Below, piece after piece: positions 2,984 through 35,397 of a DNA stretch of 64,000 bases (positions are counted from its first letter, which is position 1; the number at the start of each line of letters is the position of its first letter). Under the pieces are notes generated by a model, which saw only the letters and a program-made list of their open reading frames with translations, made no database searches and was not told the DNA's origin. Source of the stretch: an uncultured Acholeplasmataceae bacterium (GTDB lineage: Bacteria > Bacillota_I > Bacilli_A > ML615J-28 > CAG-698); the NCBI GenBank assembly GCA_963542825.1, contig CAUTZD010000003.1:6804-70803 (forward strand). Reading direction: 5' to 3'. Made by a program: the position numbers and the translations under genes.

Positions 2984-2989
2984 AATAAA

Positions 2990-3030
2990 AAAATAGCAGA
3001 TACTTTTTAAAGCATCTGCTATATATTATT
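2990..3030 (-). terminator. Rho-independent terminator after the large lipoprotein gene
   Basis: Inverted repeat agcagat...atctgct followed by a T-run on the minus strand. Confidence 0.6.
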
Positions 3031-5187: not shown

Positions 5188-5202
5188 TTTTCCTCCTTTT
5201 TA

Positions 5203-6597
5203 CTATTTAACTCTTTTAAAATTATTGATAAGATTAAGATCATCTTTCAAAACTTCTTTTACAGGGTCGCCAATTGGTTTGCCATCATTGTCATACTTTT
5301 GAGTTTGTTTTACACGGAAGCATTCTCCCGGTGTTAATTGATATCCTTCTTTTGGTTGTTTAACGATTGCCGCAATAATATCATATTTAACACCTTCTTC
5401 AATTCGAAAGTCTGACCAGTGTAAAGTTTCACCGCCTGCAAGAATTTCATAATCCTGTGTTTTTATTAAATATTGATCCCATTTAGTTTTAATATCGGCA
5501 CCAATATACATATTGAAATCGTTGCCGTCTTTGTCTTTGCATTTGATAATCCAGTAGTAGTTATCGCTGTTCTCCGGCTTCTTGCGAATTATCTCACTTA
5601 CAGTAACACCCTTAAATTTGACAACCCGACCTGCGTATTCTTTAAAATCATCAGATGAAGTAATCACTGGAAACTCAAAATCTTTCATGTTTATCTTGCC
5701 AGTAACAACAGCTTCGGTAACATCGGTAAACTGTGTTCCAAATTCACCTTCGTAATCAAGTTTAGCTTTAACTTTAACCTTATCACCTACGCTTGTAGAA
5801 GCATAGAATCTTTCATCATTAAAGTGACCGTAGAAAAATGCTCCGGCTTTTCCTTTGTGAATTTTTTGTTCACCATTTTCTTCATATGTAAATTCGTCTT
5901 CAATATCCTCAACAAAAACGCCAGTTCCTTTTTTTCGAGTAATTAAACCTTCGATCTCGAAAATAGTTCCTGTTTGCCATTCGTCGCCTTTATCTAAGAT
6001 ATATTTGATTGAACCTTTAATCGTTGTTGTTGCGTAGTTAAAATCAGGATCAGGTTTAGGAGAGTATAGATGAAGTTTTTTACTGCGAGCATATTTATCA
6101 GCTTGAAGCAGTTCCTTACTAAACTCGTCAGCATCACCTCCAAGTTTAGCTTTTGAAAAACCATTCAAAACGATATCAAAGTTTAATAGACGAGGCACTG
6201 TTTCACCTTTAGGGATATACCAAACCCAACCGAGAACCCGCGAACCAGTTGCATCGATTCCGCGACTCTCAACAATAATTTTAGCATCTTTTAAAGCGTT
6301 TTTTGTATAGTCACTAGCCTTCTTACCCCAGGCTTCAACTTTACCAGTTGATTCAGGAGTATCAATACCTAAAAAACGAATCTTATAACTTTTGCCGCTG
6401 CTTGTCACATGAATGGTGTCACCATCCACGTGCTTGGCTAACTCTACTTCGCCAATTGACCCTGCTGTACCATCAAAAACTTGACCAGTATAGTTTTTCT
6501 TAAGCAGAGGGCTCTTTGGCTCTTTGACATTACAACCACCTAAAAGCAGTCCAAGTAGAGCTAGTAGACATAGTTGTAAAAATCTTTTAAATTTCAT
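5203..6597 (-). CDS. Membrane nuclease lipoprotein with a staphylococcal (thermo)nuclease SNase domain
   Basis: Lipobox LLGGC. SNase motif VDGDTIHV...YKIRFLGIDTPE...KKASDY. The start codon overlaps the stop of the upstream binding-protein gene (TAATG). Confidence 0.75.
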   Translation of the reverse strand: MKFKRFLQLCLLALLGLLLGGCNVKEPKSPLLKKNYTGQVFDGTAGSIGEVELAKHVDGDTIHVTSSGKSYKIRFLGIDTPESTGKVEAWGKKASDYTKNALKDAKIIVESRGIDATGSRVLGWVWYIPKGETVPRLLNFDIVLNGFSKAKLGGDADEFSKELLQADKYARSKKLHLYSPKPDPDFNYATTTIKGSIKYILDKGDEWQTGTIFEIEGLITRKKGTGVFVEDIEDEFTYEENGEQKIHKGKAGAFFYGHFNDERFYASTSVGDKVKVKAKLDYEGEFGTQFTDVTEAVVTGKINMKDFEFPVITSSDDFKEYAGRVVKFKGVTVSEIIRKKPENSDNYYWIIKCKDKDGNDFNMYIGADIKTKWDQYLIKTQDYEILAGGETLHWSDFRIEEGVKYDIIAAIVKQPKEGYQLTPGECFRVKQTQKYDNDGKPIGDPVKEVLKDDLNLINNFKRVK

Positions 6598-8273: not shown

Positions 8274-8297
8274 TTATACCTCCTTAAAATTTAGAAA

Positions 8298-9257
8298 TTA
8301 TCCTTTAGTTCCACCACGCGTAACTCCACGCATGATATATTTTCTAAGTGTAATAAAAACGATTAAAAGTGGAATTGTTACAAGCATACTCATCGCCATC
8401 CGGAAGTGAAGTGGATCTTTTAAACCGTTTTGGGCGATTTCTCCCGTCATCGGTCTAAAGACACGAATTAAGGCGTTGGATACAAGGAGCATGTTTGGCT
8501 CGTTAGCTACTAAATCTGGCCAAATATAGGCATTCCAAGTTCCCATCATACTAAGGATGAAAACAGTCGTCATCGTTGCTTTTCCAAGCGGAATCATGAC
8601 TTTAAATAAATATTTAAAATCACCACAACCATCAATCTTGGATGCAAAATATAACTCATTAGGAATTTGTTTAAATGTTTGTCGTAAGAAATAAATATAG
8701 AACACACTAACGATAAAAGGCAGTAAGAGTGCCGTATAATGATTTCTTAAATGTAAGCTTGTAATTGTTGAGTAGTTAGTTAAAATGAAGATTTCACCAG
8801 GAACCATCATTGTTCCTAAAAGAATCGTAAATAAAACATTTTTAAGTTTGAAGTTAAGTCGCGCAAACGCAAAAGCTGAAAGTGTTGTCGATATCATCGC
8901 AAACGATGTTGTTAGAAAACCAACCAAAATTGTATTGAAGAACACACGGCCCAAACTAACAGCACCCATCGCTGGCTTAACAGGAAGACCTGCAAGCTCG
9001 TAAGTTCCTTTAGCATATCTTACCGTATCGATAAAGTTTCTAAATTGCCAGTGCTTGGGAAAGAAACTAACTTTTGCACTATTGATTTCTTCAGTTGTCC
9101 GTAGAGCCGTTGCAAACATCCAGTAAAACGGCAAAATGATAAAAATGGCAATGAGGACAAGAAAGGCATAAATTCCAATATTTATTGCCACCGATTTAAC
9201 TTTATAAGCCTTGGCTTTTTTACCTGTTAAATAAAGAGCACGTTCATTTTGATACAT
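8298..9257 (-). CDS. ABC sugar-type permease (MalG-like)
   Basis: Six TM segments. EAA loop ASKIDGCGDFKYLFKVMIPLGK. Confidence 0.8.
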   Translation of the reverse strand: MYQNERALYLTGKKAKAYKVKSVAINIGIYAFLVLIAIFIILPFYWMFATALRTTEEINSAKVSFFPKHWQFRNFIDTVRYAKGTYELAGLPVKPAMGAVSLGRVFFNTILVGFLTTSFAMISTTLSAFAFARLNFKLKNVLFTILLGTMMVPGEIFILTNYSTITSLHLRNHYTALLLPFIVSVFYIYFLRQTFKQIPNELYFASKIDGCGDFKYLFKVMIPLGKATMTTVFILSMMGTWNAYIWPDLVANEPNMLLVSNALIRVFRPMTGEIAQNGLKDPLHFRMAMSMLVTIPLLIVFITLRKYIMRGVTRGGTKG

Positions 9258-9268
9258 AAATTTTCACC

Positions 9269-10291
9269 TTAGTAATGAACCTTTCTTTTGGAAATTTGCT
9301 GCTGAATAACAGTGATAATCATAATGATAATGAAAAGACTAATAGAAGCGGCAGCTGCTCGTGGTTGTCCATTAACCTCATCGCTTCGACCAACCCATTT
9401 ATACACATAGCCAACAATTGTTAAGTATCTATCAGGATTATCATCAGTTCCCATTTTACCGTTAAAGAGTGCCAGTACGCTTGTATACACTTTGAAAGCA
9501 CCAATAAAGGAAGTGATTGAAATATAAGAAATCATTGGTGATAAAAGCGGAACAGTAATCCGCCTAAATACTCTTTCCCGTGGTGTTGAATCGATTTGGG
9601 CTGACTGGTAGTACTGCTTATCAATACTTTGCATACCTGACAAGAATACCATGATCTTAAATGCTAAACCGTGCCATAAAGAGTGAATAATAATAACTAG
9701 AAATCCCGCCATATATTTCGGAATCCGCGATTCGCCGTTATCAAGAATTACCCGGTTAACCCAAGGAATCGCTTCTTTCCCAAGACCAATTCTTAACGAG
9801 TTAATCAAACCGCTTGATGAACCAAAGATTGCCGCAAACGTTAAACCAACGGCAATCGTATTTGTTACATAAGGTAAGAAATAGATTGTCTGGAAAACGC
9901 CTTGACCTTTTTTAATTCCGTTTAAGGCTACGGTAATAAACAAAGCAACCATAATTGTAAGCGGAACGGAAATAACAACAATTAACGCTGTATTCCCAAG
10001 GCTTGTTAAGAAAGTTTTATCTGTCCAAATGTGTTTAAAACTTTCGATACCAATTCCGATTCTAAACGTTGTCTTATTTCCTAAACTGTCGACTGTTTCA
10101 ATGGTTTTCCCAAAATGTTCAAACCAGTTGTAAACAAACGTACTACCTCTTGCAGCTCCATATGTGTATCCATCCATAAAAGCCATTAAGAAAGCTCTGA
10201 TAATTGGATAAATCATAAAAACTGTCGTTAAAAGGAGCGTTGGAAGTAAGACTAAGGTCGCCTTTAAATCGTCCTTTTTATATTCTAACAT
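9269..10291 (-). CDS. ABC sugar-type permease (MalF-like)
   Basis: Polytopic. EAA loop QSAQIDSTPRERVFRRITVPLL. The start abuts the ATPase stop (TAAATG). Confidence 0.8.
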   Translation of the reverse strand: MLEYKKDDLKATLVLLPTLLLTTVFMIYPIIRAFLMAFMDGYTYGAARGSTFVYNWFEHFGKTIETVDSLGNKTTFRIGIGIESFKHIWTDKTFLTSLGNTALIVVISVPLTIMVALFITVALNGIKKGQGVFQTIYFLPYVTNTIAVGLTFAAIFGSSSGLINSLRIGLGKEAIPWVNRVILDNGESRIPKYMAGFLVIIIHSLWHGLAFKIMVFLSGMQSIDKQYYQSAQIDSTPRERVFRRITVPLLSPMISYISITSFIGAFKVYTSVLALFNGKMGTDDNPDRYLTIVGYVYKWVGRSDEVNGQPRAAAASISLFIIIMIITVIQQQISKRKVHY

Positions 10292-12403
10292 TTATAGAAC
10301 CCTTTCACCTGTCTTCTGACTGAAAACATAAAGTTTCTTAAATCCTAGAGAAATTTTTTGACCAACACTTAACTGGCGTCCTTCAGCAACGATAACTCTG
10401 ATTGTTCCTTTTTCCCATTGAGCGGTTAAAGTGATATTTTCTTTAATTGGCTTAATGAAATTGAAGTCTTTTCCATTAAGTGTCCAAGCTCTAAATGAAT
10501 ATCCTGGTCGTCTTGGTAGAATCTTCGGTTCTTCAATTTGTGTTCCCACAGGAACTGTAATTGATGGAACTGGACTTCCACCTTCAACTGCGAAACTAAC
10601 AGTAACCATTTTTGGTGTTTTAGCTTTTGGATCTTTAGGTTCCTCGGAAACAGTTTCTTCAGACTGTTTTTGCTCTTCAAGTTCTAGGGCTTTTAAGGTC
10701 TTCCTCTCAGCAACCTTATCGAAGTTTTCGAAATCACAAATCGCCATCGTATCACGACCAATATGCTCGATATATTTAATGCCTGCTTTCATTGGTCCCT
10801 TTTCATCAATCACAAAGAACTCTGGACGAAGTCCAATAAATACTTCTTGATCATCAGCATCAGCATTTGTTAAAAGTGTGCCATTATTCAAGTAAAGTTT
10901 TTTACCAAGTATATATCCAGCTTGGATATTGATTGGTGGATTACCTAAGAATTTAGCAACAAATAAATTCTTTGGATTATCATAAACGTTTTGTGGTTCA
11001 TCTTCTTGCTGGTGAACACCATAATTCATTAAAACAATCTTATCACTTATACTCATCGCTTCTTCCTGGTCATGAGTAACGAAAATTGTTGTGATACCAG
11101 TAGAATGCTGAATACGGCGAATTTCTTCACGCATCTGCAAACGCAAGCGCGCATCAAGATTACTTAACGGTTCATCAAGAAGCAAAACGCGTGGCTTCTT
11201 AACTAAAGCCCGGGCGATGGCAACACGTTGCTGTTGTCCGCCTGATAGCTGTTGAGGTTTGCGGTCAAGCAAATCGCCAATATGAACAAGCTCTGCCATT
11301 TTCTTCGCCATCTCTAAGGCTTTCTCTTTTGGCACCTTCATATTCTCAAGCGGGAATAAGATGTTTTGTTTAACAGTCATATGCGGATAGAGCGCATAGT
11401 TTTGGAAAACAAGACCAATACCGCGTCTTTCTGGTGGCATTACGGTAACATCTTCTTCATCAAAATAAATCTTCCCATTCGTTGGATTATGTAGTCCTGC
11501 AATCATAAATAGCGTTGTTGACTTACCACATCCTGACGGACCTAAAAGACCAACAAGTTTTCCTGCAGGAATGGAAACGTTGAAATCATTAACAGCAACC
11601 GTTTCCCGTCCTTGCTTATCTGTAAAGACTTTTGTTAATCCTTCCAAACGAACTTCCACGGAATGCATCTTACCTTCGAGAGCTTGCCATAAACTAGCTC
11701 TTTTAGCTAAACTAGGATTTTCGATATGATTTTTGATGCTGATTATTAAATAAGTAAAAGCCTTGAGTTTAAGAATCTTCGTAAAATCTACAATTGTCTC
11801 CGCGTTATAGTCAAGCTTAATATTATCGATAATATTGTAATCAGTAAAAAGCATTTCATTTAACCGGTAAAGAATCGCTTCACTAATAAACTTTAAAGGA
11901 TCGCTCGTTTCAATGCCAAGACCTTCAACAATTTCTTTGGCTTCTTTAATTGTTGGATTCCCTTTAAAACATAACTTGTTTGTAAGCCAAAGAACAGTTT
12001 CTTCTAAATCACGTTCCTCGTTTTCTTTTAAAGGCTTTAAACAATACTTTTCCTTGATTTGATAATTCTCTACCCAAAGAGATTTATCTAGGGTTTTTGA
12101 TTCTTCCTTTGTTTCTTCTGATCCACTTAAAGAAACAATTTTGTTTTTAAGTTCTTCACTGGCATTAAAAAGTATCGCCTCGAATTCATCATTGCTTAGC
12201 AAATCAAGAAACTCTTTAATCTTTTCACCACTAAGGCTATTAATTTCCCGATCTAGCCGCGAAGCAAACTCTGGCTTCATAGCCTCTTGCAAAGCTAATA
12301 ATTTGGCTTTCGATACTTTAGGTTGTTTTTCGTGCCGCCTAAAAAGTCCAAGTAACTCAGAATCAAGGCACGGTTCTAAATTTTGATTTTCCTTATTTTC
12401 CAT
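10292..12403 (-). CDS. MalK/UgpC-type ABC ATPase with a 230-aa N-terminal extension and a Flg_new-like insertion in the C-terminal regulatory domain
   Basis: Walker A GPSGCGKST, signature [15 protein letters not shown], Walker B LLLDEP. The start was reassigned to the ATG at 12401-12403 (RBS AGGAG 7 nt upstream), because the 23 extra N-terminal codons of the tracked ORF are encoded by a terminator hairpin. Confidence 0.8.
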   Translation of the reverse strand: MENKENQNLEPCLDSELLGLFRRHEKQPKVSKAKLLALQEAMKPEFASRLDREINSLSGEKIKEFLDLLSNDEFEAILFNASEELKNKIVSLSGSEETKEESKTLDKSLWVENYQIKEKYCLKPLKENEERDLEETVLWLTNKLCFKGNPTIKEAKEIVEGLGIETSDPLKFISEAILYRLNEMLFTDYNIIDNIKLDYNAETIVDFTKILKLKAFTYLIISIKNHIENPSLAKRASLWQALEGKMHSVEVRLEGLTKVFTDKQGRETVAVNDFNVSIPAGKLVGLLGPSGCGKSTTLFMIAGLHNPTNGKIYFDEEDVTVMPPERRGIGLVFQNYALYPHMTVKQNILFPLENMKVPKEKALEMAKKMAELVHIGDLLDRKPQQLSGGQQQRVAIARALVKKPRVLLLDEPLSNLDARLRLQMREEIRRIQHSTGITTIFVTHDQEEAMSISDKIVLMNYGVHQQEDEPQNVYDNPKNLFVAKFLGNPPINIQAGYILGKKLYLNNGTLLTNADADDQEVFIGLRPEFFVIDEKGPMKAGIKYIEHIGRDTMAICDFENFDKVAERKTLKALELEEQKQSEETVSEEPKDPKAKTPKMVTVSFAVEGGSPVPSITVPVGTQIEEPKILPRRPGYSFRAWTLNGKDFNFIKPIKENITLTAQWEKGTIRVIVAEGRQLSVGQKISLGFKKLYVFSQKTGERVL

Positions 12404-12439
12404 ATACACTCCTGTTTCTTTTTTTATTTTTAACTGATT

Positions 12440-12467
12440 AAAAAAGCCAGACTTTTCTAAGTCCGGC
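12440..12467 (-). terminator. Intrinsic terminator (recR terminator and/or attenuator of the ABC operon)
   Basis: Minus-strand hairpin GCCGGAC-uuagaaaa-GUCUGGC followed by UUUUUU. It lies downstream of a strong promoter and a 32-codon ORF. Confidence 0.6.
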
Positions 12468-12498
12468 TTCATAGCTTCCGGACACCATGAAGTAAAAA

Positions 12499-13538: not shown

Positions 13539-16500
13539 TTACTCCTTTCTATCGAAGAAACTGGCAATCACTTCACGAGCTTCTTCGACTTCTGTCTTTT
13601 CCTTTTTAAATTTCGTTAAATCAATCAAACCTTCAAATTTGAATGGTTTGAGAATTGGTTTTTGTGTTCCGTTAGCAAATTGATTACGATAATCTTTGCG
13701 GATTATTTCCCAAACTTCCTGAGGCAAAGCGAGGTACTCATAACCGGCTCCAAGAACCCTATACAAAGCTCCTGTTGCTGTCTCATAAAATTCTGGCTCC
13801 ATCACAAGATTACAATTAGTGATATCACCAAACACAAGAATCATCTTGCCATTATTTGCAGCTACTGGGGTACCATTTTTAAGAATTCTCAGGTTACCAT
13901 TACCAGGAAGCGCGACATCGAAATTAGCTCCAAGGTCGCTTTGGAAAATTGACAACACACGCTTTTTCTCATCACGAGCCTCTTGACTACTAGCATCATT
14001 TAAAATCTTTTCAATGTATTTGATGCTGTATTTTTTATAAAACCACAAATCTTTGTTTTCAATGTTTTCTGGTTTGTTATCGGCAACAATTGTCGAGTTT
14101 GTCTTATCTTTAATAACAAGTTCAGAATTTTTAACTATTGGTTTTACAACTTGTTCTTCTTTTTTATTTTCAAGCTCACGCAAGGCTTCAATTGCCTCTT
14201 GTTTACGGGCTTTGGTTTCTTCAAGTTCTGTTTGAATGCGCTCTTTTTCTTTTTCAAGAACTTCAAGCTTCTCCTGCGTCTCGCGTTCTTTTAAAGCTTC
14301 GACTTCTGCTAGTTCTTGTTTTTTCTTCATAAATTCAGCTTCCTGTTTTTCCTTGATTGCTTTTTCTTTCATCTGAAGAATTTCTTCAGCTTTTCTGATT
14401 TCAGCTTCCCTTTGCTCTTTCTCAAGCTGTTTAAGTTTTAACTCTTTCTCACGAAGTGCATTTTCTTCCTCAATGCGCTTTTGCTTTTCTTCGATAAGGA
14501 GCATTTCTTCTTTGCGCTTGATTTCTTCTAAACGCCGTTTTTCATTAAGGCTTTCTTCGCTAGTTTTACTAAGATCACCAAAATTAACTTTAGGGTCAAC
14601 CGCTTTTTGAAATTCACTCAAATTCTCATATTCATTACCACGATTAACAATTGAAGTTTTCCTTGCTTGTTTTTGCTTGATTGGACTATTATCATAAAGT
14701 TCTCCCGAAGCAAAACGATAAAACTCTTTTTCAAGTTTCTGAATACGTTCAAGTAAATCATCGTCAACTGCTGTATTCTCTCTTGATATCTTTACATTTT
14801 TCAAGTCGTTAAATTTTTCTTCGAGCTCATTAATACGCCCATTATACTTATACGTATTGTTGCTATTTGTTTGAATCTGTGATTTCAAAACAGAAATTTC
14901 TGAAAAAAGTGATTCAACTGTTTCACTGTTTGACGCTTTGCTAGCACCCTCTGTTTTTTGGTAGTCGCGTTCAAACCTACCCTCAAGAATCTCAAGACGC
15001 TTATTTAAAAGTTCAAGCTGATCTAGTTTATCATAAACGCTAGTATCTATTTCTTGAGGTCTAAGTTTCAGTTTACTAAGGTCACTATCAACGCCATATA
15101 CTTTCTTCTCGATGATATCGAATTTCTCTTGAAGTAAACCTACCTTTTTATCGATCAGTTCAACTTCTTCGCTGTTAGCATTCGTTATATTTTCGCCAAT
15201 ACTTCCGCGAGACATATCAAAAATTAACATCTTTTGTTCAAGCTCATCGATGCGCCCCTCAAAATAAGCGTTGTTAATCTTCGGACGATTTTCCTCAGCT
15301 ACTTCAAGTTTATGAAGACTCTCTTTTAGTTTAGGTATTTCAAGTTTGTTTAGTTCCTCAACAATCATTTCAAGTCGGTTTTTAAACTCTTCAATTTCTT
15401 CAGAAGATACCTTGGAACCCGTAGTTAACCCTTCAATATCGAGTTTATTTATTTTTTCTTCTAAAGCATTAAGACGCGATATCGTTTCAATTGTTTCCCC
15501 ACGCGCTTTAATCATTTTAACTAGAGCAATCTCAAAATGAATTCGGGGATTTGGTGTCCTCTTAATTTTATACAAAACCTCACTAAGGATTTCGATAAAA
15601 TAAAAGATTTTCGCTTCGGTCTCGTCTTTTGCAAGTTCAATAAACTTATCATAATCATAGATATGTTTATTTTGAATATCCCGCTCGCCATTCTTATAAA
15701 GAAGCATATCACGGTAAAGTTGTATCAAACCATATATTATCTTTGAGATTTCTTTTCCTTCAGCATAAAGCTCTTCAGCAATCGCTAAAGTCTCTTTAGC
15801 GCCACCCCTTGTAATGCTTGTTGCAAGTTTTACAAGTGCCTGGTATTCAACGTTCCCCGTAACAGAACTAACGTCTGTTATCTCAACTGTATCTCCGGTT
15901 GCATAACTTATAACTTGATCAAGAATACTTAAAGCGTCACGCAAAGCTCCTTCCGATGCTTCAGCAATTGCGATAAGTGCTTCATCAGAAACATTTAAAT
16001 CCTCGTTAACGACAATCAAACGAAGCTTTGTAAAAATCTCGTTAACTGTCAAAATCCGAAAATCAAACCGCTGGCAACGCGAAATGATTGTTTTCGGAAG
16101 TTTTTCAGGCTCGGTAGTTGCTAGAATAAAAATAACGTGTTTTGGCGGTTCTTCTAAAACTTTTAGTAAAGCGTTGAAAGCAGCCTGCGTAAGCATATGT
16201 GCTTCATCAATTATATAAACTTTATAATTAGCAGCAGATGGTAAAAACTGAACTTTTTCTCTGATATCACGAATTTGTTCAACCCCGTTGTTACTCGCGG
16301 CATCAAGTTCAATAACATCTGGGTAAGAACTCTCGGCAATTTCTTTACAACGGTTACACTTACAGCATGGCTCGGAATCGCGCGTATCTTGGCAAACTAA
16401 AGTGGACGCAAAAATACGGGCAACACTTGTTTTCCCGGTTCCGCGTGGTCCCGAAAATAAATAAGCATGCGATATCTTTTGTTGCCCAATTGAGTTTTGT

Positions 16501-16580
16501 AGGGTCCTTACGACTAATTCTTGTCCAACGACTTCTTTAAATTTCTTTGGTCTGTAAGTCCGGTAAAGTGCCTGGTACAT
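13539..16580 (-). CDS. dnaX: DNA polymerase III subunit tau/gamma with a roughly 450-aa charged coiled-coil extension
   Basis: N-terminal clamp-loader AAA+ region (GPRGTGKTS, zinc module CCKCNRC, DEAHML, SRCQ). The following 600 aa are E/K-rich repeats plus a C-terminal globular region. Confidence 0.9.
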   Translation of the reverse strand: MYQALYRTYRPKKFKEVVGQELVVRTLQNSIGQQKISHAYLFSGPRGTGKTSVARIFASTLVCQDTRDSEPCCKCNRCKEIAESSYPDVIELDAASNNGVEQIRDIREKVQFLPSAANYKVYIIDEAHMLTQAAFNALLKVLEEPPKHVIFILATTEPEKLPKTIISRCQRFDFRILTVNEIFTKLRLIVVNEDLNVSDEALIAIAEASEGALRDALSILDQVISYATGDTVEITDVSSVTGNVEYQALVKLATSITRGGAKETLAIAEELYAEGKEISKIIYGLIQLYRDMLLYKNGERDIQNKHIYDYDKFIELAKDETEAKIFYFIEILSEVLYKIKRTPNPRIHFEIALVKMIKARGETIETISRLNALEEKINKLDIEGLTTGSKVSSEEIEEFKNRLEMIVEELNKLEIPKLKESLHKLEVAEENRPKINNAYFEGRIDELEQKMLIFDMSRGSIGENITNANSEEVELIDKKVGLLQEKFDIIEKKVYGVDSDLSKLKLRPQEIDTSVYDKLDQLELLNKRLEILEGRFERDYQKTEGASKASNSETVESLFSEISVLKSQIQTNSNNTYKYNGRINELEEKFNDLKNVKISRENTAVDDDLLERIQKLEKEFYRFASGELYDNSPIKQKQARKTSIVNRGNEYENLSEFQKAVDPKVNFGDLSKTSEESLNEKRRLEEIKRKEEMLLIEEKQKRIEEENALREKELKLKQLEKEQREAEIRKAEEILQMKEKAIKEKQEAEFMKKKQELAEVEALKERETQEKLEVLEKEKERIQTELEETKARKQEAIEALRELENKKEEQVVKPIVKNSELVIKDKTNSTIVADNKPENIENKDLWFYKKYSIKYIEKILNDASSQEARDEKKRVLSIFQSDLGANFDVALPGNGNLRILKNGTPVAANNGKMILVFGDITNCNLVMEPEFYETATGALYRVLGAGYEYLALPQEVWEIIRKDYRNQFANGTQKPILKPFKFEGLIDLTKFKKEKTEVEEAREVIASFFDRKE

Positions 16581-18441: not shown

Positions 18442-21390
18442 CTATAAGTAGTATTTTCGATCTTCAAGCCAAACTAAATCAATTTGTTTAGCAGAAATTT
18501 GAATAAGACCAGTTAAATCAAGTAAGTCCATAAACGCAAGTTCAACAAATTCTGGAACATCAATAAATGGATTGCGGTTCTTTTGAATTCCATAAATTCT
18601 GTTATTACGGCTCTTTTCAAACTTATCGACTTTGTCTTGATAACTCCACTTAACAAGATATGAAAACCGCCCCATATATCCTTTTGGTCTATAGTTACCA
18701 TCGTGGTTGTCTTTACCAAGCTTACTAACTTCGTCAGTTAAGATTAACGTTTCTCTATACATAATAAACATATAGAAAAGGATTCGTGCAGCATCGCCTT
18801 TGCAAAGGTCGCCGGGATAAAATCCATATTCTCCATCTTTTCCGCTAGTTAAGTATCCTGTTGTTTGTGGTTTTGGATTTTTTGGATCAACGTATGGATA
18901 GTTGTTTCTTGTTGAATTGATGTTTTTTTCTGCTGCTCTTAAATTGTGGAGATCCGATGCAATGTTTCTTTCTCCAGCACCAACACGCTTAACACCAAGT
19001 CTTGAATTTGGCCATACGTGTTCGCGATTCCAAGGATCTCCCCCTGTCCATTCAGCTTTATAAAGTACCCGGTCATACATACCAAGAACTTTGCCTGGAT
19101 GGTCTGGGTCTTCATCGGTTGTACACAAATCATATCTAACTTCATTATAACTACGTCTTACAAGATTACTAGGGTGCATTAGTTCATTGAGTTTGTCTCG
19201 CAAAGCACTTCCTGTTAAGCCTTTAGTGCCCTGCCAATAAAGGTTAATATTTTCTTCTGATTCAGGTGACATCCCGCCTTGTTTATAAAACTTAAAAGTA
19301 TAATCTCGCGCAACAAAATCAATTTTTTGGTATTTTTTCTGAGTTTCAACATCAACGAATTCGCCTTCACCTTCTTCGTAATAATCGAGGGCATGATCAA
19401 ATTCACTACCATATTTACACTGATACTCTTTAATCAAATCACCAGTTGATTTCTTGAAAGCTATTTTATATACTTTACGTTTATAGTATACTTTCAAAAG
19501 ATTATTAGTTTCAGAAACATTAATAATAAGAATAGCATTGACGTTCAGTTCATCATGCTCAAAACCATCAAACTGCTTAATATCAGCCTGAACTTCTTCG
19601 CCATCCTTATAGTTTACTTTTGTTGTCTTGGTGTCGTCTTTTGTAAAATCAGAATTATCAATATTCTCAAAATAATATTCAGTAGTTACTAAAACTACCT
19701 TTTCCCAGTGTAATGTTATTGTAACGTTTTCTGTTATCGCGTAGCTTTCTGAAACTTGATTCCCGTCAATAAAATAACCAACAAAGCGATAACCAATACG
19801 AATCGTGTTAATGTTAAGTTCGGAAATTTTAGTACCAACCTCAACACGCTTAACGATAGTATTACCATCATAATTATAGTTAATTGTTACATTAACGTAT
19901 TCTTTGGCCTTTTCCCAAACAAGTTTAATTTTGGTATTTACCGATAACGTTAAATCGCCACTAACTTCTTGGTCGTTAATTAGATACTTTTGAATTGTAT
20001 ATCCAGGTCGATTCTCAAACGGAAGATCCTTAATTTTTGTGTATTCTTTAACAGTAACGGTTCTTACAATACCATCATAGTTATAGTCAATTTCAACATT
20101 GATATCGTTAACCTGTAAAGCCCAAATAAGTTTAACAGTTAAGTTTTTTGTAATCATGAAATCAGGATTTTTCCAAATACCATCAACTTCATAACCACGA
20201 TGAACAAAGCCAGCTCTTGTAAACTCACCAAGTTCGCTGAGAGTTGTATCTTCGTTTACTTCTCGTGTTTCTGTGATGCTATCATAACCGTGATCAATTG
20301 TCACTTGATATTTGTTAATAATCTTTTCCCAAATAACTTGGAGTTTAGCATCACTATTAAATGGACTCAAACCGCCAACATATACATCATTAAGTTTATA
20401 ACCAATAATTTTATATCCTTGACGTGGGTCAAGTGTTAGTTCGCCAACAAGCGTTCCTTCGTCAACTACATAATTTTTAACAATGCCGTTATAGTTATAA
20501 TCTACTTCTATTTTGTACTGACGAACAAAAACAACATGGAGTGCTGTTTCTTGTTTGATTTCATAATCATCGGTAAGCTTAACACCATTTAGCGTATAGT
20601 GTGAAAAACGAAAGCCCGGCTTTTCTGGTTTTTCGAGATCACCAATTTTTTTATTACGGTCAATAATTACTGTTTTAAATTCATCAAAAGATAAATAAAT
20701 GAGAACTTTGATTTGCCAAACAACTGTTATTTTAATATTATTTTTAATTTCATAGTCATCAGAAAGAACATTGCCGTCTTCATCAGCAAAATACCCAAAC
20801 ACAAAACCAAGTTTTGTTGGTTTTTTAATTGTGCTGATTTTTGTTCCCCTAGAAACTTCTTCAGTTGTTAGTTCACCATCGTTATCGATTGTTAAAGTAA
20901 CTTTTACAAGTGAATAAACAGGAACAAGATTAAGGTCTTTTTTAACCTTGTCATCTAAACTAATATCTTTGCCTTTTTCATCGCAGAATCCTAAAACGGT
21001 ATTGGTAAAATTAGAAAGTATCTCGCGAAGCGTTTTACCGTGTTCAACTTTATACGTTGTTTGAACACCATTATCAGTAACAGTAATATTATACAATTTA
21101 CCTTTAATTATCTTAACAGTTGTTGAATAACGGTTTCCTTTGAAGAGAATTGTTAGTGTGTGTTCTCCAGCCGCTTTTAACTCCTCAAGATTCGATATCA
21201 CCATATCCTGAGTTAAAGTTTTGGTTTTGGTTTTGCCGTTTTCTTGATACTTTATTGAAATATCAGATAACTTAAAAGTGTTAGCATCATACTCTGCCTG
21301 CTTGTGGATAAAATCAACACGATTACCCCTACAAGCAGCTAGAAAAAAAATACTTAATCCTAATATTAAATAACTAAAAAATTTCTTCAT
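18442..21390 (-). CDS. Surface lipoprotein with multiple Listeria-Bacteroides (Flg_new) repeats and a C-terminal Endonuclease-I-family nuclease domain
   Basis: Lipobox FFLAAC. There are at least five repeats of the form GY[RK]F.GY...G......I..N.T..L.WEK. The C-terminus carries WNREHVWPNS...DLHNLRAAEKNINSTRNN, the hallmark of Endonuclease I (EndA/Vvn/Bsn family). Confidence 0.7.
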   Translation of the reverse strand: MKKFFSYLILGLSIFFLAACRGNRVDFIHKQAEYDANTFKLSDISIKYQENGKTKTKTLTQDMVISNLEELKAAGEHTLTILFKGNRYSTTVKIIKGKLYNITVTDNGVQTTYKVEHGKTLREILSNFTNTVLGFCDEKGKDISLDDKVKKDLNLVPVYSLVKVTLTIDNDGELTTEEVSRGTKISTIKKPTKLGFVFGYFADEDGNVLSDDYEIKNNIKITVVWQIKVLIYLSFDEFKTVIIDRNKKIGDLEKPEKPGFRFSHYTLNGVKLTDDYEIKQETALHVVFVRQYKIEVDYNYNGIVKNYVVDEGTLVGELTLDPRQGYKIIGYKLNDVYVGGLSPFNSDAKLQVIWEKIINKYQVTIDHGYDSITETREVNEDTTLSELGEFTRAGFVHRGYEVDGIWKNPDFMITKNLTVKLIWALQVNDINVEIDYNYDGIVRTVTVKEYTKIKDLPFENRPGYTIQKYLINDQEVSGDLTLSVNTKIKLVWEKAKEYVNVTINYNYDGNTIVKRVEVGTKISELNINTIRIGYRFVGYFIDGNQVSESYAITENVTITLHWEKVVLVTTEYYFENIDNSDFTKDDTKTTKVNYKDGEEVQADIKQFDGFEHDELNVNAILIINVSETNNLLKVYYKRKVYKIAFKKSTGDLIKEYQCKYGSEFDHALDYYEEGEGEFVDVETQKKYQKIDFVARDYTFKFYKQGGMSPESEENINLYWQGTKGLTGSALRDKLNELMHPSNLVRRSYNEVRYDLCTTDEDPDHPGKVLGMYDRVLYKAEWTGGDPWNREHVWPNSRLGVKRVGAGERNIASDLHNLRAAEKNINSTRNNYPYVDPKNPKPQTTGYLTSGKDGEYGFYPGDLCKGDAARILFYMFIMYRETLILTDEVSKLGKDNHDGNYRPKGYMGRFSYLVKWSYQDKVDKFEKSRNNRIYGIQKNRNPFIDVPEFVELAFMDLLDLTGLIQISAKQIDLVWLEDRKYYL

Positions 21391-21420
21391 TTGTTCCCTC
21401 TTAGCTATTCATTATACCCT

Positions 21421-21458
21421 ATTTTCCTTAAAAATAAAAGAAATAGAAGAAAAATTCT
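21421..21458 (-). terminator. trxA terminator
   Basis: Hairpin gaaatagaag...cttctatttc followed by a T-run on the minus strand. Confidence 0.55.
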
Positions 21459-21459
21459 T

Positions 21460-21756
21460 CTATTTCCCACAAAATTTTAGTAATTCATCTTTTGGTAAAA
21501 AGCCTGTGTTAATCTTACTAACTTCGCCTCCCTTAAATAAAACAAGGGTAGGAATTGATCTAACTTTAAATTCATTAGCAAGTTCTGGGTTCTCGTCAAC
21601 ATTGATTTTAACAACCTTGAGCCAGCTTTTTTCTTCTTCCATAACTTGTTCGACAAGTGGAAGTAGCATTCTACAAGGTCCACACCAAGTTGCGAAAAAG
21701 TCAATAAGTACATTATCGTTTGCTTTTACAATTTCATTTAACTCTTTAACTGTCAT
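21460..21756 (-). CDS. trxA: Thioredoxin
   Basis: 98 aa with the WCGPC active site. Confidence 0.9.
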   Translation of the reverse strand: MTVKELNEIVKANDNVLIDFFATWCGPCRMLLPLVEQVMEEEKSWLKVVKINVDENPELANEFKVRSIPTLVLFKGGEVSKINTGFLPKDELLKFCGK

Positions 21757-24649: not shown

Positions 24650-26236
24650 TTATTTATTGAGTGCGTAGTACCAAAGAATTAGTCCAATAGCAAATAAAAC
24701 AATAATCACAGCAACAGTAATAACAACTGTTGTAATATACGCATTCGCGTTTTGACTACGATTTACAGTTTTAGGACTACTATCCTCGCTTACAACTATA
24801 GTCTCTCCCTGTTTTTCTTCTGGGACTTGTTTTAAATCAATAGCCTCGTTATAGTTTTCTACGTCGCTAGATTTTCTTTCTTCACTAAGAAGAGAAAGTT
24901 GTTCTTTTAACTCTCTAATTTCTCTCTCGTACATTGGCTTCTGTTTAAGAAGAACTTCGGCGCGCAAGCGCAAGGAAACAATCATGTCCGTTAAATTCTT
25001 AATTCGTGCTTCTTGATTATAACTAACGCGGGCATCAGTTTTTGCTGATTCTTTGATATTTTTATAATAATTTATTTCTCTTTCAAGTTCATAAATTCGT
25101 TCTTGAAGCGGTTTAACGTCGTTATTGATAGAAACAACAGAAGTATTCTTTTCGTTTAACGCTTTCTCAAGCTGTCTTATCTTTTCCTGAAGTTTTGCTT
25201 CACCAACTGCATCAAGTGACCCACTGACAGTTTTTCCATGTTTGTTCTTAAGTTCGCTTTCAAGTGTTGAAATAGTATCTTGTTGACTCTTAATTTGCGC
25301 CTCTGTCAAAGCTCCCTCTTTTTTATTTTTAGCAATCATTGCCTTAAGCTCTTCATCGAGCTTTTTCTTTTCCTCGTTAAGTTTTTTGATTTGCATCGTC
25401 TGGCGAGGGTTCAAAGGAATATTGCTTCGCGAGGCTAAAATATCATCAGCAAGCAAATTGACTTTCTCAGCTAGTTTAAGTTCAATACGGGCATCAAGCT
25501 TGTTATCGATCGCAAATTTCTCAAGGTCTTCAATAGGTAGTGCCCTTAACTCTTTGATTTTAGCTGATTCCTCTTTCTTCTCGAAAAGCTTTTTTTCTTT
25601 AACTTCTTCAACAACTAAACGTTCAAACTCTTTTTTCTTCCAGCTGTCTTGAAGCCGAACACCATATTTACTTGCAACTTTTTTAACAATCTCTAAGCTA
25701 TTTGTAGCCGTCATGATTTTCTCAAATTCGATTCGCGATACACCATCAATATTCTCGCCTTCGTCAAAAAACACATTTTCTGTTTCCTTGTTGAAAGTTG
25801 AAACCGAAGGAATCGTTTTACCATCAGTCACGATTTTACCCGTACTGACTTTAATAAATGTTTCAAGTAAATCTTCATGCGTTCTTCTGAAGAGTAAATA
25901 CTCCATTAAAACAAGCCATAACTCTTCGTAGTAAACGGTTCTTAATGGCTTTAAATTCATTTCTTGGAAAGTTAGTTCAAGAAGCGTCTCCGAAAAGTTA
26001 TCAAAGTTTTTCCAAATTTCAACCCATTCTTTATTTTTGTTTTCGTTAACTTCTTTAATAACGTTATCCCGTAAAGCTTTTTTAAGAGCTTGCGTTCTAT
26101 CACTTTTTGGAATTGATAGCCCGTTTTCGCTCAAACTATCAGAAAGGTAGTTCCCCGGTATTGTAATTAAATACGGAAGAACATCTTCAACTTTAAATTC
26201 GCGGTTCTTAATGTAAAATGTTGATTCTCTTTTCAT
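24650..26236 (-). CDS. Tail-anchored coiled-coil protein (528 aa), unknown function
   Basis: Long heptad-rich central region and a single C-terminal TM segment (VVITVAVIIVLFAIGLILWYY). Confidence 0.5.
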   Translation of the reverse strand: MKRESTFYIKNREFKVEDVLPYLITIPGNYLSDSLSENGLSIPKSDRTQALKKALRDNVIKEVNENKNKEWVEIWKNFDNFSETLLELTFQEMNLKPLRTVYYEELWLVLMEYLLFRRTHEDLLETFIKVSTGKIVTDGKTIPSVSTFNKETENVFFDEGENIDGVSRIEFEKIMTATNSLEIVKKVASKYGVRLQDSWKKKEFERLVVEEVKEKKLFEKKEESAKIKELRALPIEDLEKFAIDNKLDARIELKLAEKVNLLADDILASRSNIPLNPRQTMQIKKLNEEKKKLDEELKAMIAKNKKEGALTEAQIKSQQDTISTLESELKNKHGKTVSGSLDAVGEAKLQEKIRQLEKALNEKNTSVVSINNDVKPLQERIYELEREINYYKNIKESAKTDARVSYNQEARIKNLTDMIVSLRLRAEVLLKQKPMYEREIRELKEQLSLLSEERKSSDVENYNEAIDLKQVPEEKQGETIVVSEDSSPKTVNRSQNANAYITTVVITVAVIIVLFAIGLILWYYALNK

Positions 26237-26271: not shown

Positions 26272-27099
26272 TTATTTATTCTTTTTAGCTTTGTCATAAG
26301 TATCTAAAAAAGAATGTTTAGTATTTCCTTTTTTATATTCAAGGACACAGTTTAAGTTAACATTTCTCCCTAAGGAAAATAGTGTTTTCTCAATATCCTT
26401 ATTAAACGCTTTTAACTTTTCAATAATTTTTTTCGCTTCCTGGCGGTCACTATACATCTTTTCTTCGACAAACTTACAGCCTTTAACAATCGGCACAATT
26501 TCACATTTCTTCATGAAATTTAGAATATCTTTTTCCTTAACTAAATACAAAGGTCTAATAAGTTCTAAACCATTAAAATTTGTTGACCAAAGCTTCGGCA
26601 TCATCGTTTTAAATTCACCAACTCTAATAACATTTAAAAGTGTTGTTTCAATAACATCATCAAATGTGTGAGCTAAAGCAATTTTATTACAGCCGTATTT
26701 CTCAGCGTTTTCATAAAGAAATCCCCTACGCATCCGGGCACACATATAGCAAGGCCTTTCGGGATCAAGTTTTAAGGCAACACTTAGAAAGTTACTATCA
26801 CCTATTATTAAAGGAATCATAAGCTCTCTTGCATTTTTCTCAAGAAGTTTTCTATCACTTTCCTTAAACCCAGGGTCCATCGCAAAAAACACAAGATTCA
26901 CCTTAAACTGATCGTGCCTCACTATCTCTTGTAAAAGTTTGGCAAGAACTAAACTATCCTTACCACCCGATATACAAACAAGTACCTTATCGCCATCTTT
27001 TAAAAGCTTGTAATCAACAATCGCCTTAACAAATGGCTTATAGATAGTTGACCGGTAAGTTGTGAGAATTAGTCTCTCAATTTCTTTGATGTTTAGCAT
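26272..27099 (-). CDS. ttcA: PP-loop ATPase, TtcA-like tRNA 2-thiocytidine synthetase family
   Basis: PP-loop SGGKDS. CYMCARMRRG plus GC motifs parallel the TtcA Fe-S cysteine cluster (CSLCSRLRRG). Confidence 0.7.
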   Translation of the reverse strand: MLNIKEIERLILTTYRSTIYKPFVKAIVDYKLLKDGDKVLVCISGGKDSLVLAKLLQEIVRHDQFKVNLVFFAMDPGFKESDRKLLEKNARELMIPLIIGDSNFLSVALKLDPERPCYMCARMRRGFLYENAEKYGCNKIALAHTFDDVIETTLLNVIRVGEFKTMMPKLWSTNFNGLELIRPLYLVKEKDILNFMKKCEIVPIVKGCKFVEEKMYSDRQEAKKIIEKLKAFNKDIEKTLFSLGRNVNLNCVLEYKKGNTKHSFLDTYDKAKKNK

Positions 27100-28072
27100 T
27101 TTTGTTGTTAAGTGGATGGATTAAACTAACAATAAAACCAACGCTAAAGAAAGCCGATACAACAAAAGTAATTAACACCTGCCACCAAACATATTTCTTA
27201 AAAACATACTTTTGATAACCAATCGCTTGAACGTCGTGGTTTGCCGCCTTAGTAAGTTTTAAAGTCTTATCATTTAACTTTTCAGCAATCCCTGTAAAGA
27301 TAACATCCTCACCACTATTTTCCTTCATGAGGTCAACCTTCTTATCTCCAAGTAGTAAACTAACAATTACACCCTCATCTGATGATTTCTTTTCGGTGTC
27401 GTTTAAGTAGTCAGTTAGTTCTGGTTTTTCATGATTGCCTTCAAAAGCGGCAACCCGCATTGGTGAATGGAATTTTTTGCCGTTCTTATCAGTCTTAGGA
27501 ATAACCGTATTTTCAACCATCCCAAGATAAGTTGTATTTTGATCTGCATAAGAATGTGGCGTTTTAAAAGTCAATTCTCTTTTAAAGTCTGTATTGTTTT
27601 TATAAGTTAAAAGTAGTTTAATCGTTGATGGTGTAATGTCTTTTTCTATCGATAAGTCTTCACCTTTTTCTTGGCGATCTCTTTTATTCAAGAGCTCTTC
27701 ATTAACGTTCTTTAGATAAAAAAACGTTACAATCTCATCACGATTTACTTTAACTGTCTTATTAGATTCTTTCTTTTCCTCTTGCCACTTAACCCGGGCC
27801 CGTTTAGCAACAAGCGTTAGATAACGCTTGCCGTCGCCCGTTAAAACGTCTTTCTCAAAAATTGTTTCCGTTTCGTAGCTATAGCTTTCATATTTTAAAT
27901 ACTTTTCCATAAATTCATCTTCAGTTTGATTTTCTTTTTCTACTAAATAGTGATCAACAAAATACTTTTCTTTGTACCTGTTATAGCCGTAGAAACCTAT
28001 TATTATTGAAAGGATAATAGGAATGATCCCAAACGAAAGTATTATCAAAATTTTAGCTATTTTATTATTCAT
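27077..28072 (-). CDS. Bitopic membrane protein, unknown function
   Basis: N- and C-terminal hydrophobic segments. Overlaps the ttcA-like start by 23 nt. Confidence 0.45.
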   Translation of the reverse strand: MNNKIAKILIILSFGIIPIILSIIIGFYGYNRYKEKYFVDHYLVEKENQTEDEFMEKYLKYESYSYETETIFEKDVLTGDGKRYLTLVAKRARVKWQEEKKESNKTVKVNRDEIVTFFYLKNVNEELLNKRDRQEKGEDLSIEKDITPSTIKLLLTYKNNTDFKRELTFKTPHSYADQNTTYLGMVENTVIPKTDKNGKKFHSPMRVAAFEGNHEKPELTDYLNDTEKKSSDEGVIVSLLLGDKKVDLMKENSGEDVIFTGIAEKLNDKTLKLTKAANHDVQAIGYQKYVFKKYVWWQVLITFVVSAFFSVGFIVSLIHPLNNKNAKHQRN

Positions 28073-34678: not shown

Positions 34679-35362
34679 ATGGATAAATTAGAAACCCTAA
34701 AAAAAGCTAAAGCTGAGGTTATTCAATCATTCGCGCCAACTAACGAATTTTTAGCAAAATTTATTACTAGTCAATTTGGGTTTGAGGAAGATGGATTAGA
34801 TGAAATTGAAGTTTTGAAAGTTCTCGAAGATAAGAAATCAAAACTTACTGTCCAAATGCAAAAAGGTATTTTAAACGAAAAGGAAGCCTTTTTGAAAATT
34901 TTCGATATGGCTAAACAAGGTGAAGACATGGATGAAAAACATTTAAAAGATATTCACGCAATCTTGCTAAAAGATTTAAATCCTCTTGGAGGACTATATC
35001 GCCAGGTAAATATTAGTGTTAAAGGCAGTTCGTACATCCCGCCTCATTTTTTAAAAGTGTATGATAAAATGAATAAATACTTTGTTGAAACTTTAAATCC
35101 GTTTGGCAATTTATATGAAAACATCAGTTATGCTCACCTGCAGCTAACAAAGGTTCGCCCATTTATTGATGCCAATGGCCGCCTTGCAAGAATTGTACTT
35201 AACTATCATCTCATTAAAAACGGTTTTCTACCAATTATTATTAACCATAAAAAACCTCAAGAATACTTTGCTTTACTTGAAGAGTTCAAAGTCCAAAAAA
35301 ACATTAAACCGTTTGTTGAATATTTAATAAAAGAAGAAGCTCTCGTTTTGGAAGCTTTATAA
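34679..35362 (+). CDS. Fic/Doc-family protein with a degenerate active-site motif (RPFIDANGRLAR)
   Basis: Fic fold signature ...AYAHLQLTKVRPFIDANGRLARIVLNYHL. The canonical HPFx[DE]GNGRxxR has His replaced by Arg and the first Gly replaced by Ala. Confidence 0.75.
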   Translation: MDKLETLKKAKAEVIQSFAPTNEFLAKFITSQFGFEEDGLDEIEVLKVLEDKKSKLTVQMQKGILNEKEAFLKIFDMAKQGEDMDEKHLKDIHAILLKDLNPLGGLYRQVNISVKGSSYIPPHFLKVYDKMNKYFVETLNPFGNLYENISYAHLQLTKVRPFIDANGRLARIVLNYHLIKNGFLPIIINHKKPQEYFALLEEFKVQKNIKPFVEYLIKEEALVLEAL

Positions 35363-35367: not shown

Positions 35368-35397
35368 AAAAGACACAGGATCATGCCTGTGTCTTTT
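35368..35397. terminator. Bidirectional terminator between fic and the convergent membrane-protein gene
   Basis: AAAGACACAGG-atcatg-CCTGTGTCTTTT. Confidence 0.6.

Follow-up and report, generated by a model that had tools for sequence, protein, structure and literature searches.

The locus and its nuclease gene

We analysed a 64,000-nt stretch of DNA from an uncultured Acholeplasmataceae bacterium (GenBank assembly GCA_963542825.1, contig CAUTZD010000003.1, positions 6,804 to 70,803 of the forward strand), called the window below. One gene on its reverse strand encodes a 982-aa protein that starts with a lipoprotein signal peptide, continues through seven Flg_new (InlB B-type) repeats and two further modules, here called midA and midB, and ends in an Endonuclease-I (EndoI) domain followed by a short tail (Table 1). 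The protein is probably a surface-tethered nuclease that scavenges nucleic acids, and its nuclease module has been exchanged between strains by recombination. A sequence-only reading of the window had proposed a surface lipoprotein of this composition and, together with an SNase lipoprotein elsewhere in the window, a second membrane nuclease. Its domain identities, the intact catalytic residues and the presence of two surface nucleases stood up to analysis; the supposed rarity of the architecture did not.

Table 1. Features of the lipoprotein nuclease gene and of related loci in the window (aa numbering refers to the nuclease protein)
Feature	Coordinates	Strand	Details	Evidence
Lipoprotein nuclease gene, whole	18442..21390	-	982 aa, single open reading frame (ORF), ATG start, stop codon included	ORF list
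Lipoprotein signal peptide	21331..21390	-	aa 1-20, MKKFFSYLILGLSIFFLAAC; lipobox L-A-A-C, Cys20 predicted to be lipidated	Sequence
N-terminal region	21103..21330	-	aa 21-96, no domain family matched	Best Pfam CBM_X2, E = 0.03
Seven Flg_new / InlB-B-type repeats	19696..21102	-	aa 97-565, ~66 aa each	Self-alignment, hidden Markov model (HMM) of own repeats, generalised HMM, Pfam
midA	19456..19695	-	aa 566-645, beta-rich module of ~75-80 aa, no Pfam family	Recurrence in relatives, model
midB	19246..19455	-	aa 646-715, degenerate eighth Flg_new-like repeat	hhalign against Flg_new profile: probability 51%, E = 1.5e-4, first half only
Endonuclease-I (His-Me finger) nuclease domain	18541..19245	-	aa 716-950	Pfam PF04231, profile against PDB, AlphaFold 2 (AF2) and Foldseek
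Codons Glu790-His791	19018..19023	-	Equivalent to Vvn Glu79-His80 (general base)	Motif, alignments, model
Codon Asn825	18916..18918	-	Equivalent to metal ligand Asn127 of Vvn	HMM alignments to Vvn
C-terminal tail and stop	18442..18540	-	aa 951-982 (32 aa), predicted helical at low confidence	Models
Segment replaced by divergent allele	18514..19548	-	Codons ~615-959; other allele in L006 (P0002)	DNA identity, dS
Putative -10 hexamer and ribosome-binding site	21395..21416	-	TATAAT 21411-21416; AAGAGGGA 21395-21402	Read from sequence
Terminator-like hairpin after trx	21438..21468	-	14-bp stem, then T-run	Scan
SNase-domain lipoprotein	5203..6597	-	Lipobox LLGGC; last-but-one gene of ABC-transporter operon	Pfam SNase, 42.5 bits
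Solute-binding lipoprotein	6597-8273	-		Pfam, lipobox
ABC permeases	9269-10291, 8298-9257	-		Pfam
ABC ATPase	10292-12472	-		Pfam

The nuclease domain and its active site

The Pfam family Endonuclease_1 (PF04231) matched residues 726-947 over the full length of its profile (positions 1-235 of 235) with 103.6 bits, the gathering score being 25 (E = 1.7e-29); the C-terminal Endonuclease-I-family domain seen in the sequence-only reading is hereby confirmed. A profile of 25 subfamily sequences compared with PDB retrieved Vvn (E = 5e-17) along with three Vibrio EndoI structures (E-values from 5e-17 to 3e-11 for the set). The AF2 model of aa 716-982 (predicted local distance difference test, pLDDT, 85) gave the same picture: the only significant Foldseek matches in PDB were Vvn and Vibrio EndoI (probability 1.0, 231-240 columns), with template modelling (TM) scores of 0.61-0.67 on the target. 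A second model, of aa 497-982, reproduced this match. As modelled, the domain would have a His-Me finger fold backed by a C-terminal helical domain, which points to membership in group 9 of the His-Me finger nucleases. The 32-residue tail behind it has pLDDT below 50 over its last ~20 residues and is 97-100% conserved among orthologs.

The NCBIfam equivalog model for EndA / deoxyribonuclease I (PRK15137) scored 22.4 bits, far below its cut-off of 372, and there are only two cysteines inside the domain (C756 and C863), neither conserved in the 25-sequence alignment. For these two reasons the nuclease, judged by its sequence, is a member of the Endonuclease_1 family and not an ortholog of EndA or Vvn.

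The motifs WNREHVWPNS (aa 787-796) and DLHNLRAAEKNINSTRNN (aa 813-830) are present just as they had been quoted before. To place them, the Vvn sequence was recovered with a probe segment and its motifs were compared with ours; residue numbers of Vvn are chain index plus 18. Residues E790-H791 in NREHVWPNS correspond to Glu79-His80 in IEWEHVVPAW of Vvn, and HMM alignments put N825 in KNINSTRNN opposite chain position 109, i.e. Asn127 in EVNGDRSN. A DLHNL motif and a C-terminal NxNPF motif are conserved with the Vibrio enzymes as well. In alignments of 25 and 41 relatives E790 and H791 are invariant and N825 is nearly so. In the model a beta strand ends with H791, and the helix after the hairpin has N825 in its first turn; this is the His-Me finger layout, with the catalytic His at the strand end and the metal-binding Asn at the helix start (PMC5714182). 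The sequence-only reading had named the loss of the catalytic His or Asn, relative to Vvn and EndA, as the finding that would speak against it. Since both residues are present, and invariant or nearly so in the subfamily, it holds on this point.

Predicted membrane anchor and stalk

The signal peptide has the form MKK-FFSYLILGLSIFF-LAAC, that is, a positively charged N-terminus, a hydrophobic core and a lipobox of the pattern [LVI][ASTVI][GAS]C inside the first ~35 residues; the lipobox reported earlier is this LAAC with Cys20. According to a hydrophobic-window scan the signal peptide is the sole hydrophobic segment of the protein. Such features are those of a bacterial lipoprotein (a substrate of Lgt and LspA), and lipidation and surface exposure are predicted from them.

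The repeats were counted in several ways. In a self-alignment the motif G[YF]xF..Y appeared in six of seven repeats and a W[EQA]x ending in five (three WEK, one WQI and one WAL). All seven were matched by an HMM that combined 178 Flg_new repeats from other, Pfam-positive proteins (independent E-values from 4e-5 to 5e-16), and an HMM of the protein's own repeats likewise produced seven matches. Pfam Flg_new (PF09479) scored 25.1 bits on the whole protein, under the gathering score of 27, and 35.2 bits (E = 1.3e-8, three stretches) when applied to the repeat region alone. The InlB B-repeat structure 2y5p in PDB also matched the protein (E = 0.004). The 'five or more' repeats of the sequence-only reading are seven, at aa 97-565, and PF09479 recognises the region that holds them.

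Three parts of the protein had escaped that reading: the beta-grasp-like modules at aa 566-645 and aa 646-715, and the region at aa 21-96, which has no domain match. The last position is held by an aBig_2 domain in many relatives; we considered and rejected aBig_2 here, as an HMM made from eight such domains matched nothing in the region and Pfam returned noise only. The midA module recurs in nine other EndoI-containing relatives (P0138, P0066, P0076, P0016, P0099, P0114, P0117, P0126 and P0140), seven of which have a lipobox, and a 2409-aa protein, P0085, has 10 copies. Several surface proteins have it in alternation with Flg_new repeats; in a subset of EndoI proteins it stands just before the last repeat and the nuclease. 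That midA is itself a diverged Flg_new repeat was rejected (hhalign probability 2.6%). As to midB, a bona fide Flg_new repeat occupies its position, between midA and the nuclease, in P0076.

The model of aa 497-982 takes in repeat 7, midA, midB, the nuclease and the tail. Repeat 7, midA and midB are beta modules with pLDDT ~83-97. The model as a whole has pLDDT 88 but a predicted TM score (pTM) of 0.59, and its domains are therefore to be seen as confidently predicted and loosely arranged with respect to one another. The modelled repeat 7, midA and midB match beta-grasp arrays, namely a Ruminococcus gnavus immunoglobulin-binding protein, YwfG MucBP, poly-ubiquitin, the Lactobacillus reuteri mucus-binding (MUB) repeat and InlB (7pv9); on this basis the beta-grasp fold of the Flg_new unit is predicted for these three modules. 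The TM scores of the matches are low (0.14-0.25) and the fold is a generic one; therefore they say nothing about a ligand. The midA module, a domain family without a name in any database, might confer ligand targeting on the stalk.

Relatives with the same architecture

We searched exhaustively with HMMER, using aa 567-982, and found 8360 relatives at E <= 1e-3. We analysed 152 nuclease-containing proteins, mostly the top 150 representatives after clustering at 50% identity. Flg_new-type repeats stand N-terminal to the nuclease in 60 of these 152 closest relatives, and a lipobox near residue 20 is found in 72, including most of the repeat-bearing ones. Pfam confirmed the arrangement 'Flg_new xN + Endonuclease_1', often with aBig_2, in the 15 proteins checked; other relatives have lamin-tail (LTD) domains, type-IX-secretion (T9SS) sorting domains or tandem nuclease domains. 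The named relatives of the nuclease domain come from Mariniplasma anaerobium, Acholeplasma (Paracholeplasma) morum and metagenome-assembled genomes (MAGs) labelled 'Acholeplasmataceae bacterium' or 'Bacilli bacterium'; their annotations read 'endonuclease I family protein', 'endonuclease' or 'ribonuclease'.

The combination of repeats with EndoI had been called unusual. With 60 of the 152 closest relatives carrying Flg_new repeats before the nuclease, and most of these carrying a lipobox too, this claim finds no support; besides, a 2017 survey of His-Me finger enzymes had already described as common the fusion of Endonuclease_1 to cell-surface domains with an immunoglobulin-like fold (PMC5714182). 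With its long stalk the protein belongs to a recurrent design that is common among Acholeplasma-like bacteria, and its annotation as such is correct but ordinary.

Two or three tandem Endonuclease_1 domains were observed in P0006, P0008 and P0009; P0008 and P0009 have a type-IX-secretion sorting domain in addition, and P0009 a lamin-tail domain. From such combinations it follows that the nuclease is freely joined to surface-display modules.

A mosaic nuclease module

Orthologs of the whole protein were found with 100% (P0286), 97% (P0001) and 89% (P0002) identity. The lower value of P0002, whose gene lies at 582-3527 of locus L006, has a local distribution. At the DNA level the window and L006 are 95-100% identical in trx, in codons 1-614, in the last ~22 codons and in asnS, as against 60-87% in codons ~615-959. 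The synonymous divergence (dS) is 0.12 in the 5' part of the gene vs 1.4-1.6 in the replaced part, while the ratio of nonsynonymous to synonymous divergence (dN/dS) is ~0.12 in either part. Sharp breakpoints delimit the replaced segment. The two alleles are mutually closest: within the module they share 74% of protein residues and the next-best protein reaches <=56%; the rest of the gene is ~97% identical between the strains. Seven of the sampled sequences have the window type of allele and one has the other type; the catalytic motifs are kept in both.

Recombination has thus exchanged the nuclease module (the last part of midA, all of midB and the EndoI domain) for an allele whose source is a sister lineage outside the sample. 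Purifying selection acts on both alleles, and the dN/dS of ~0.12 between strains, in the stalk as well as in the nuclease part, argues that the protein is functional. The pattern of alleles could result from balancing selection exerted by host antibody, by a proteinaceous nuclease inhibitor or through a difference in substrate.

Long repeats followed by a C-terminal His-Me nuclease, with sharp breakpoints that recall toxin-cassette exchange, also resemble the layout of a polymorphic-type antibacterial toxin, contact-dependent or secreted, in which the repeats would carry a swappable C-terminal nuclease warhead. We rejected this explanation because no immunity gene lies beside the nuclease gene in the window or in L006: only 38 bp separate its stop codon from the convergent asnS gene, in the window as in L002 and L006. 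The exchanged piece is moreover internal, since both alleles have the last 22 codons at the C-terminal end in common. The alleles are also more closely related to each other than to any other protein and do not differ in architecture, a lipoprotein anchor takes the place of a secretion-system or delivery domain, and in the relative P0007 the gene likewise stands alone among housekeeping genes. A toxin is, in sum, highly improbable.

A role in host interaction would give both the stalk and the allele exchange a different meaning: the stalk would bind mucin, immunoglobulin or a glycan, the nuclease would degrade neutrophil DNA traps or damage host cells, and the swap of the module would reflect pressure from immunity or inhibitors. 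The stalk does resemble the R. gnavus, YwfG, L. reuteri and InlB proteins named above, and two nuclease alleles with 74% protein identity do exist within otherwise ~97% identical strains; surface nucleases of Mycoplasma and extracellular nucleases of V. cholerae are reported to act on DNA traps (PMC9740415, PMC3764145). The source samples, on the other hand, are metagenome assemblies without sign of a host habitat, the fold matches of the stalk are to the generic beta-grasp and have the low TM scores given above, and a dN/dS of 0.12 in the divergent segment indicates purifying and not diversifying selection. We consider the host-interaction role unlikely. Degradation of DNA traps, which the sequence-only reading had raised for the case of a host-associated organism, is speculative.

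Proposed function

We propose, with a probability of roughly 0.8, that the protein is tethered to the cell surface and scavenges nucleic acids as a metal-dependent nuclease of the Endonuclease-I (His-Me finger) type without sequence specificity; the activity is predicted from the residues and the fold. The protein would be exported by the Sec pathway, lipidated at Cys20 and relieved of its signal peptide, so that the mature form would be exposed on the outer face of the membrane, as the lipobox suggests. Some ten small beta-rich modules (the N-terminal region, the seven Flg_new repeats, midA and the eighth repeat) would make up a flexible stalk keeping the nuclease at a distance from the membrane; the stalk may additionally bind a surface or a polymer. 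In the active site His791 would activate a water molecule, and Mg2+ held by Asn825, with Glu790 nearby, would stabilise the transition state, if the chemistry of the family applies to the residues and fold found here. Cleavage is expected to yield 5'-phosphate oligonucleotides, as it does in Vvn, EndoI and Bsn. Having two cysteines only, the domain would do without the four disulfide bonds on which its Vibrio and E. coli counterparts rely. The products might then enter nucleotide and phosphate salvage, beside those of the SNase lipoprotein, whose gene lies 12 kb away in an operon for an ABC importer.

Several points weigh against this assignment. An equivalent of Vvn Arg99 (in GGRKNC) could not be placed, and the loop from the catalytic His to DLHNL is 13 residues shorter than in Vvn. 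By sequence, the domain aligns to Vvn from DLHNL onward only: this is where the alignment of the subfamily profile begins, and a phmmer search with an 88-aa segment, aimed at the EH motif, found no nuclease; the match to His80 rests on the EHVxP motif, its invariance and the fold. No transporter is linked to the nuclease gene, its neighbours being asnS, trx and the pyruvate phosphate dikinase gene (ppdK). The wall-less lifestyle and the nucleotide auxotrophy of the organism are assumed. Searches of the literature for activity data, or for any experimental study, on this or any other Flg_new-EndoI protein found none. Finally, the preferred substrate may be DNA or RNA, the Bacillus member of the family, Bsn, being an RNase (PMC5714182, PMC4014445).

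The unplaced Arg99 equivalent and the shortened loop near the active site would also be expected if the nuclease domain were catalytically dead and the protein only bound nucleic acids or served in adhesion. Such a loss is hard to reconcile with the catalytic His, the Glu before it and the metal Asn being invariant or nearly so across 41 relatives, and with their retention in both alleles despite saturated synonymous divergence. In addition, an arginine may be at hand: R808 is not conserved, but R818 (in DLHNLR) is nearly invariant and specific to the subfamily, and is a candidate, by its conservation, for the residue that stands in for Arg99. The chance that the enzyme is dead appears very small.

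The extracellular nucleases of V. cholerae include an enzyme of the EndoI family, Dns, and Vvn cleaves both DNA and RNA. As a variant of the scavenging reading, the surface nuclease described here could be an extracellular ribonuclease of the Bsn type, with the same anchor and stalk, whose physiological substrate is RNA, degraded to 5'-phosphate oligonucleotides for nutrient recycling. Bsn of B. subtilis, a member of this Pfam family, is an RNase activated by Mg2+ (PMC5714182), and the Bsn family is said to persist in a few Mollicutes, where it probably serves nutrient cycling (PMC4014445). A close relative of our protein, P0392, is annotated 'ribonuclease'; the protein is not an EndA equivalog (PRK15137, 22 vs 372 bits), and it lacks the set of disulfides that the DNases of Vibrio and E. 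coli have. Yet 'endonuclease' or 'endonuclease I' is the annotation of most relatives; the V. cholerae endonuclease I 2g7e is described as extracellular, and the extracellular nucleases of that species are reported to act on DNA traps (PMC3764145). The active site itself holds nothing that separates DNA from RNA as a substrate. A dedicated ribonuclease is a possible, if tentative, alternative to the sequence-nonspecific scavenging nuclease that we favour.

If the scavenging nuclease is active, Acholeplasma-like bacteria display an enzyme of the endonuclease-I type on their surface, while the studied membrane nucleases of mycoplasmas are of the SNase and MnuA families. This would bear on the acquisition of nucleotides and phosphate by bacteria with small genomes and on the turnover of extracellular DNA and RNA in their habitats. 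The design with lipid anchor, beta-grasp stalk and nuclease is common in metagenomes, and a single characterised member would annotate many proteins; the two alleles of the nuclease module offer a natural pair for functional comparison. A stronger, combined claim, that EndoI lipoproteins form a third Mollicute-type class of surface nucleases beside SNase and MnuA and that their catalytic module is an exchangeable cassette with two old alleles, seems to us rather doubtful as a whole. Current understanding is not overturned by these results.

The SNase lipoprotein and its operon

The second nuclease of the window, unrelated to the first, is the SNase lipoprotein of Table 1; Pfam and its lipobox agree with the earlier description. 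It belongs to an operon on the reverse strand (3031-12472) that encodes, in order, an ABC ATPase, two permeases, a solute-binding lipoprotein, the SNase lipoprotein and a 718-aa lipoprotein without a Pfam match. The same SNase-ABC arrangement is known for MAG_5040 of M. agalactiae, in the Mycoplasma hominis group, with the proposal that it supplies the transporter with nucleotide precursors (PMC3585158). We judge the suggestion of extracellular nucleic-acid scavenging in the sequence-only reading to be reasonable: the nearest named relatives are Acholeplasmataceae, and the SNase gene resides in a mycoplasma-like ABC operon.

The ABC ATPase of this operon (726 aa) resembles MalK; its Walker A motif is at aa 311, it lacks membrane segments, and its N-terminal extension of ~270 aa has no Pfam match. 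A single Flg_new repeat (aa ~622-688) scores well inside its C-terminal part, which places a 'surface' repeat in a protein presumed to be cytoplasmic.

Genomic context

The nuclease gene is a stand-alone chromosomal gene, because its neighbours are housekeeping genes: convergent asnS, trx, ppdK and dnaX-recR. The order trx-nuclease gene-asnS is kept in two further metagenomic strains (L002 and L006). The terminator-like hairpin after trx would set the nuclease gene apart from this upstream gene. A consensus promoter scan called no full promoter at the TATAAT hexamer upstream of the nuclease gene, and we take the hexamer as a lead only. The ORF list holds no ORF of at least 80 aa overlapping the gene (18442-21390) on the opposite strand, and no second EndoI paralog was found within the 64-kb window. 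The long ORFs of the window read correctly with the standard bacterial code, as in Acholeplasma. Apart from identical entries in NCBI and ENA metagenome assemblies, GyrB of the window reaches only ~73% identity, to proteins of MAGs labelled 'Bacilli bacterium'; it is the relatives of the nuclease that point to Acholeplasmataceae, and an Acholeplasma-like member of the Bacilli is the probable source.

A run of eight T on the coding strand (21343-21350) falls inside the signal-peptide codons; it is one of four A/T runs of at least 8 nt in the window. Phase variation at this run was considered and rejected: the run length is invariant in two orthologous loci, and tandem DNA repeats of note are absent.

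The sign of the GC skew switches at about 40-46 kb, adjoining dnaA (40831-42300) and dnaN (42375-43502), with recF-gyrB-gyrA from 46519; the region 40000-47000 is a probable replication origin. Most genes on either side of it are co-oriented with replication. The DnaX protein (clamp-loader tau/gamma; 13539-16580, reverse strand) has 1013 aa, and its Pfam domains stop near residue 360, leaving ~650 C-terminal residues without assignment. ORFs of 330-528 aa without a Pfam match at the thresholds used are located at 24650-26236, 27077-28072, 35381-37380 and 39633-40682, all on the reverse strand, and a gene for a Fic-domain protein lies at 34679-35362 on the forward strand.

Comparison with known systems

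The stalk compares with the InlB B-repeat, Flg_new and MucBP arrays of Gram-positive surface proteins, with which it shares repeat length and motifs. Its repeats are diverged, and they carry an enzyme, not leucine-rich repeats (LRR) or an adhesin head.

Bsn (YurI) of Bacillus subtilis, grouped here with binase II, is not known to have repeats or a lipid anchor. Like the present protein, Bsn is an Endonuclease_1 member from Bacillota; it is extracellular and Mg2+-activated (PMC5714182), as is predicted here. Its products are 5'-phosphate oligonucleotides and its proposed role is nutrient cycling (PMC4014445). Bsn is a free secreted protein of ~30 kDa (PMC12229549), whereas the protein described here is predicted to be anchored and stalked.

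Among Mollicutes, the membrane nucleases characterised in mycoplasmas fall into two types, SNase and the DNase-I-like MnuA (PMC12848938). MAG_5040, Mhp379 of M. hyopneumoniae and MnuA are lipoprotein-anchored, metal-dependent, sugar-nonspecific surface nucleases with a proposed role in the supply of nucleotide precursors (PMC3585158, PMC12848938), much like the mode of action predicted here. Their folds (OB-fold SNase and EEP/DNase I) are unrelated to the His-Me finger, and the EndoI gene is outside any transporter operon; the window's own SNase follows the ABC-operon arrangement of mycoplasmas. Literature searches for experimental work on an EndoI-type enzyme of Mollicutes found none; the Bsn family has been noted in a few of them (PMC4014445).

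With the periplasmic or extracellular gamma-proteobacterial enzymes (Vvn, 1OUP/1OUO; EndoI of V. cholerae and V. salmonicida, 2G7E/2PU3; E. coli EndA) the protein has in common the PF04231 domain and the predicted fold. The Glu-His of the beta-hairpin, the metal Asn, DLHNL and NxNPF are conserved with Vvn and Vibrio EndoI, and export from the cytoplasm, predicted here, is alike. Sequence identity to the nuclease domain is ~20%, and the chains with known structures are soluble and 207-231 aa long, in contrast to the lipobox anchor and ~700-aa stalk of our protein. A 2003 EMBO J study by Li et al. is said to have found eight cysteines in four disulfides in Vvn. Disulfide bonds are mentioned, without a count, for Endonuclease_1 enzymes in PMC5714182.

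The closest counterparts are the EndoI lipoproteins of Acholeplasmataceae and Bacilli MAGs (among them P0007, P0016, P0076, P0098, P0035 and P0010). Their nuclease domains are 40-58% identical to the one described here; they have the same lipobox and the same order of lipobox, surface modules and nuclease, and several have midA directly before the last Flg_new repeat and the nuclease. The present protein differs from them in having no aBig_2 domain at the N-terminus, where many of these relatives have one, and in the length of its stalk, with seven repeats plus one as against one to six in most of the relatives (eight in P0010).

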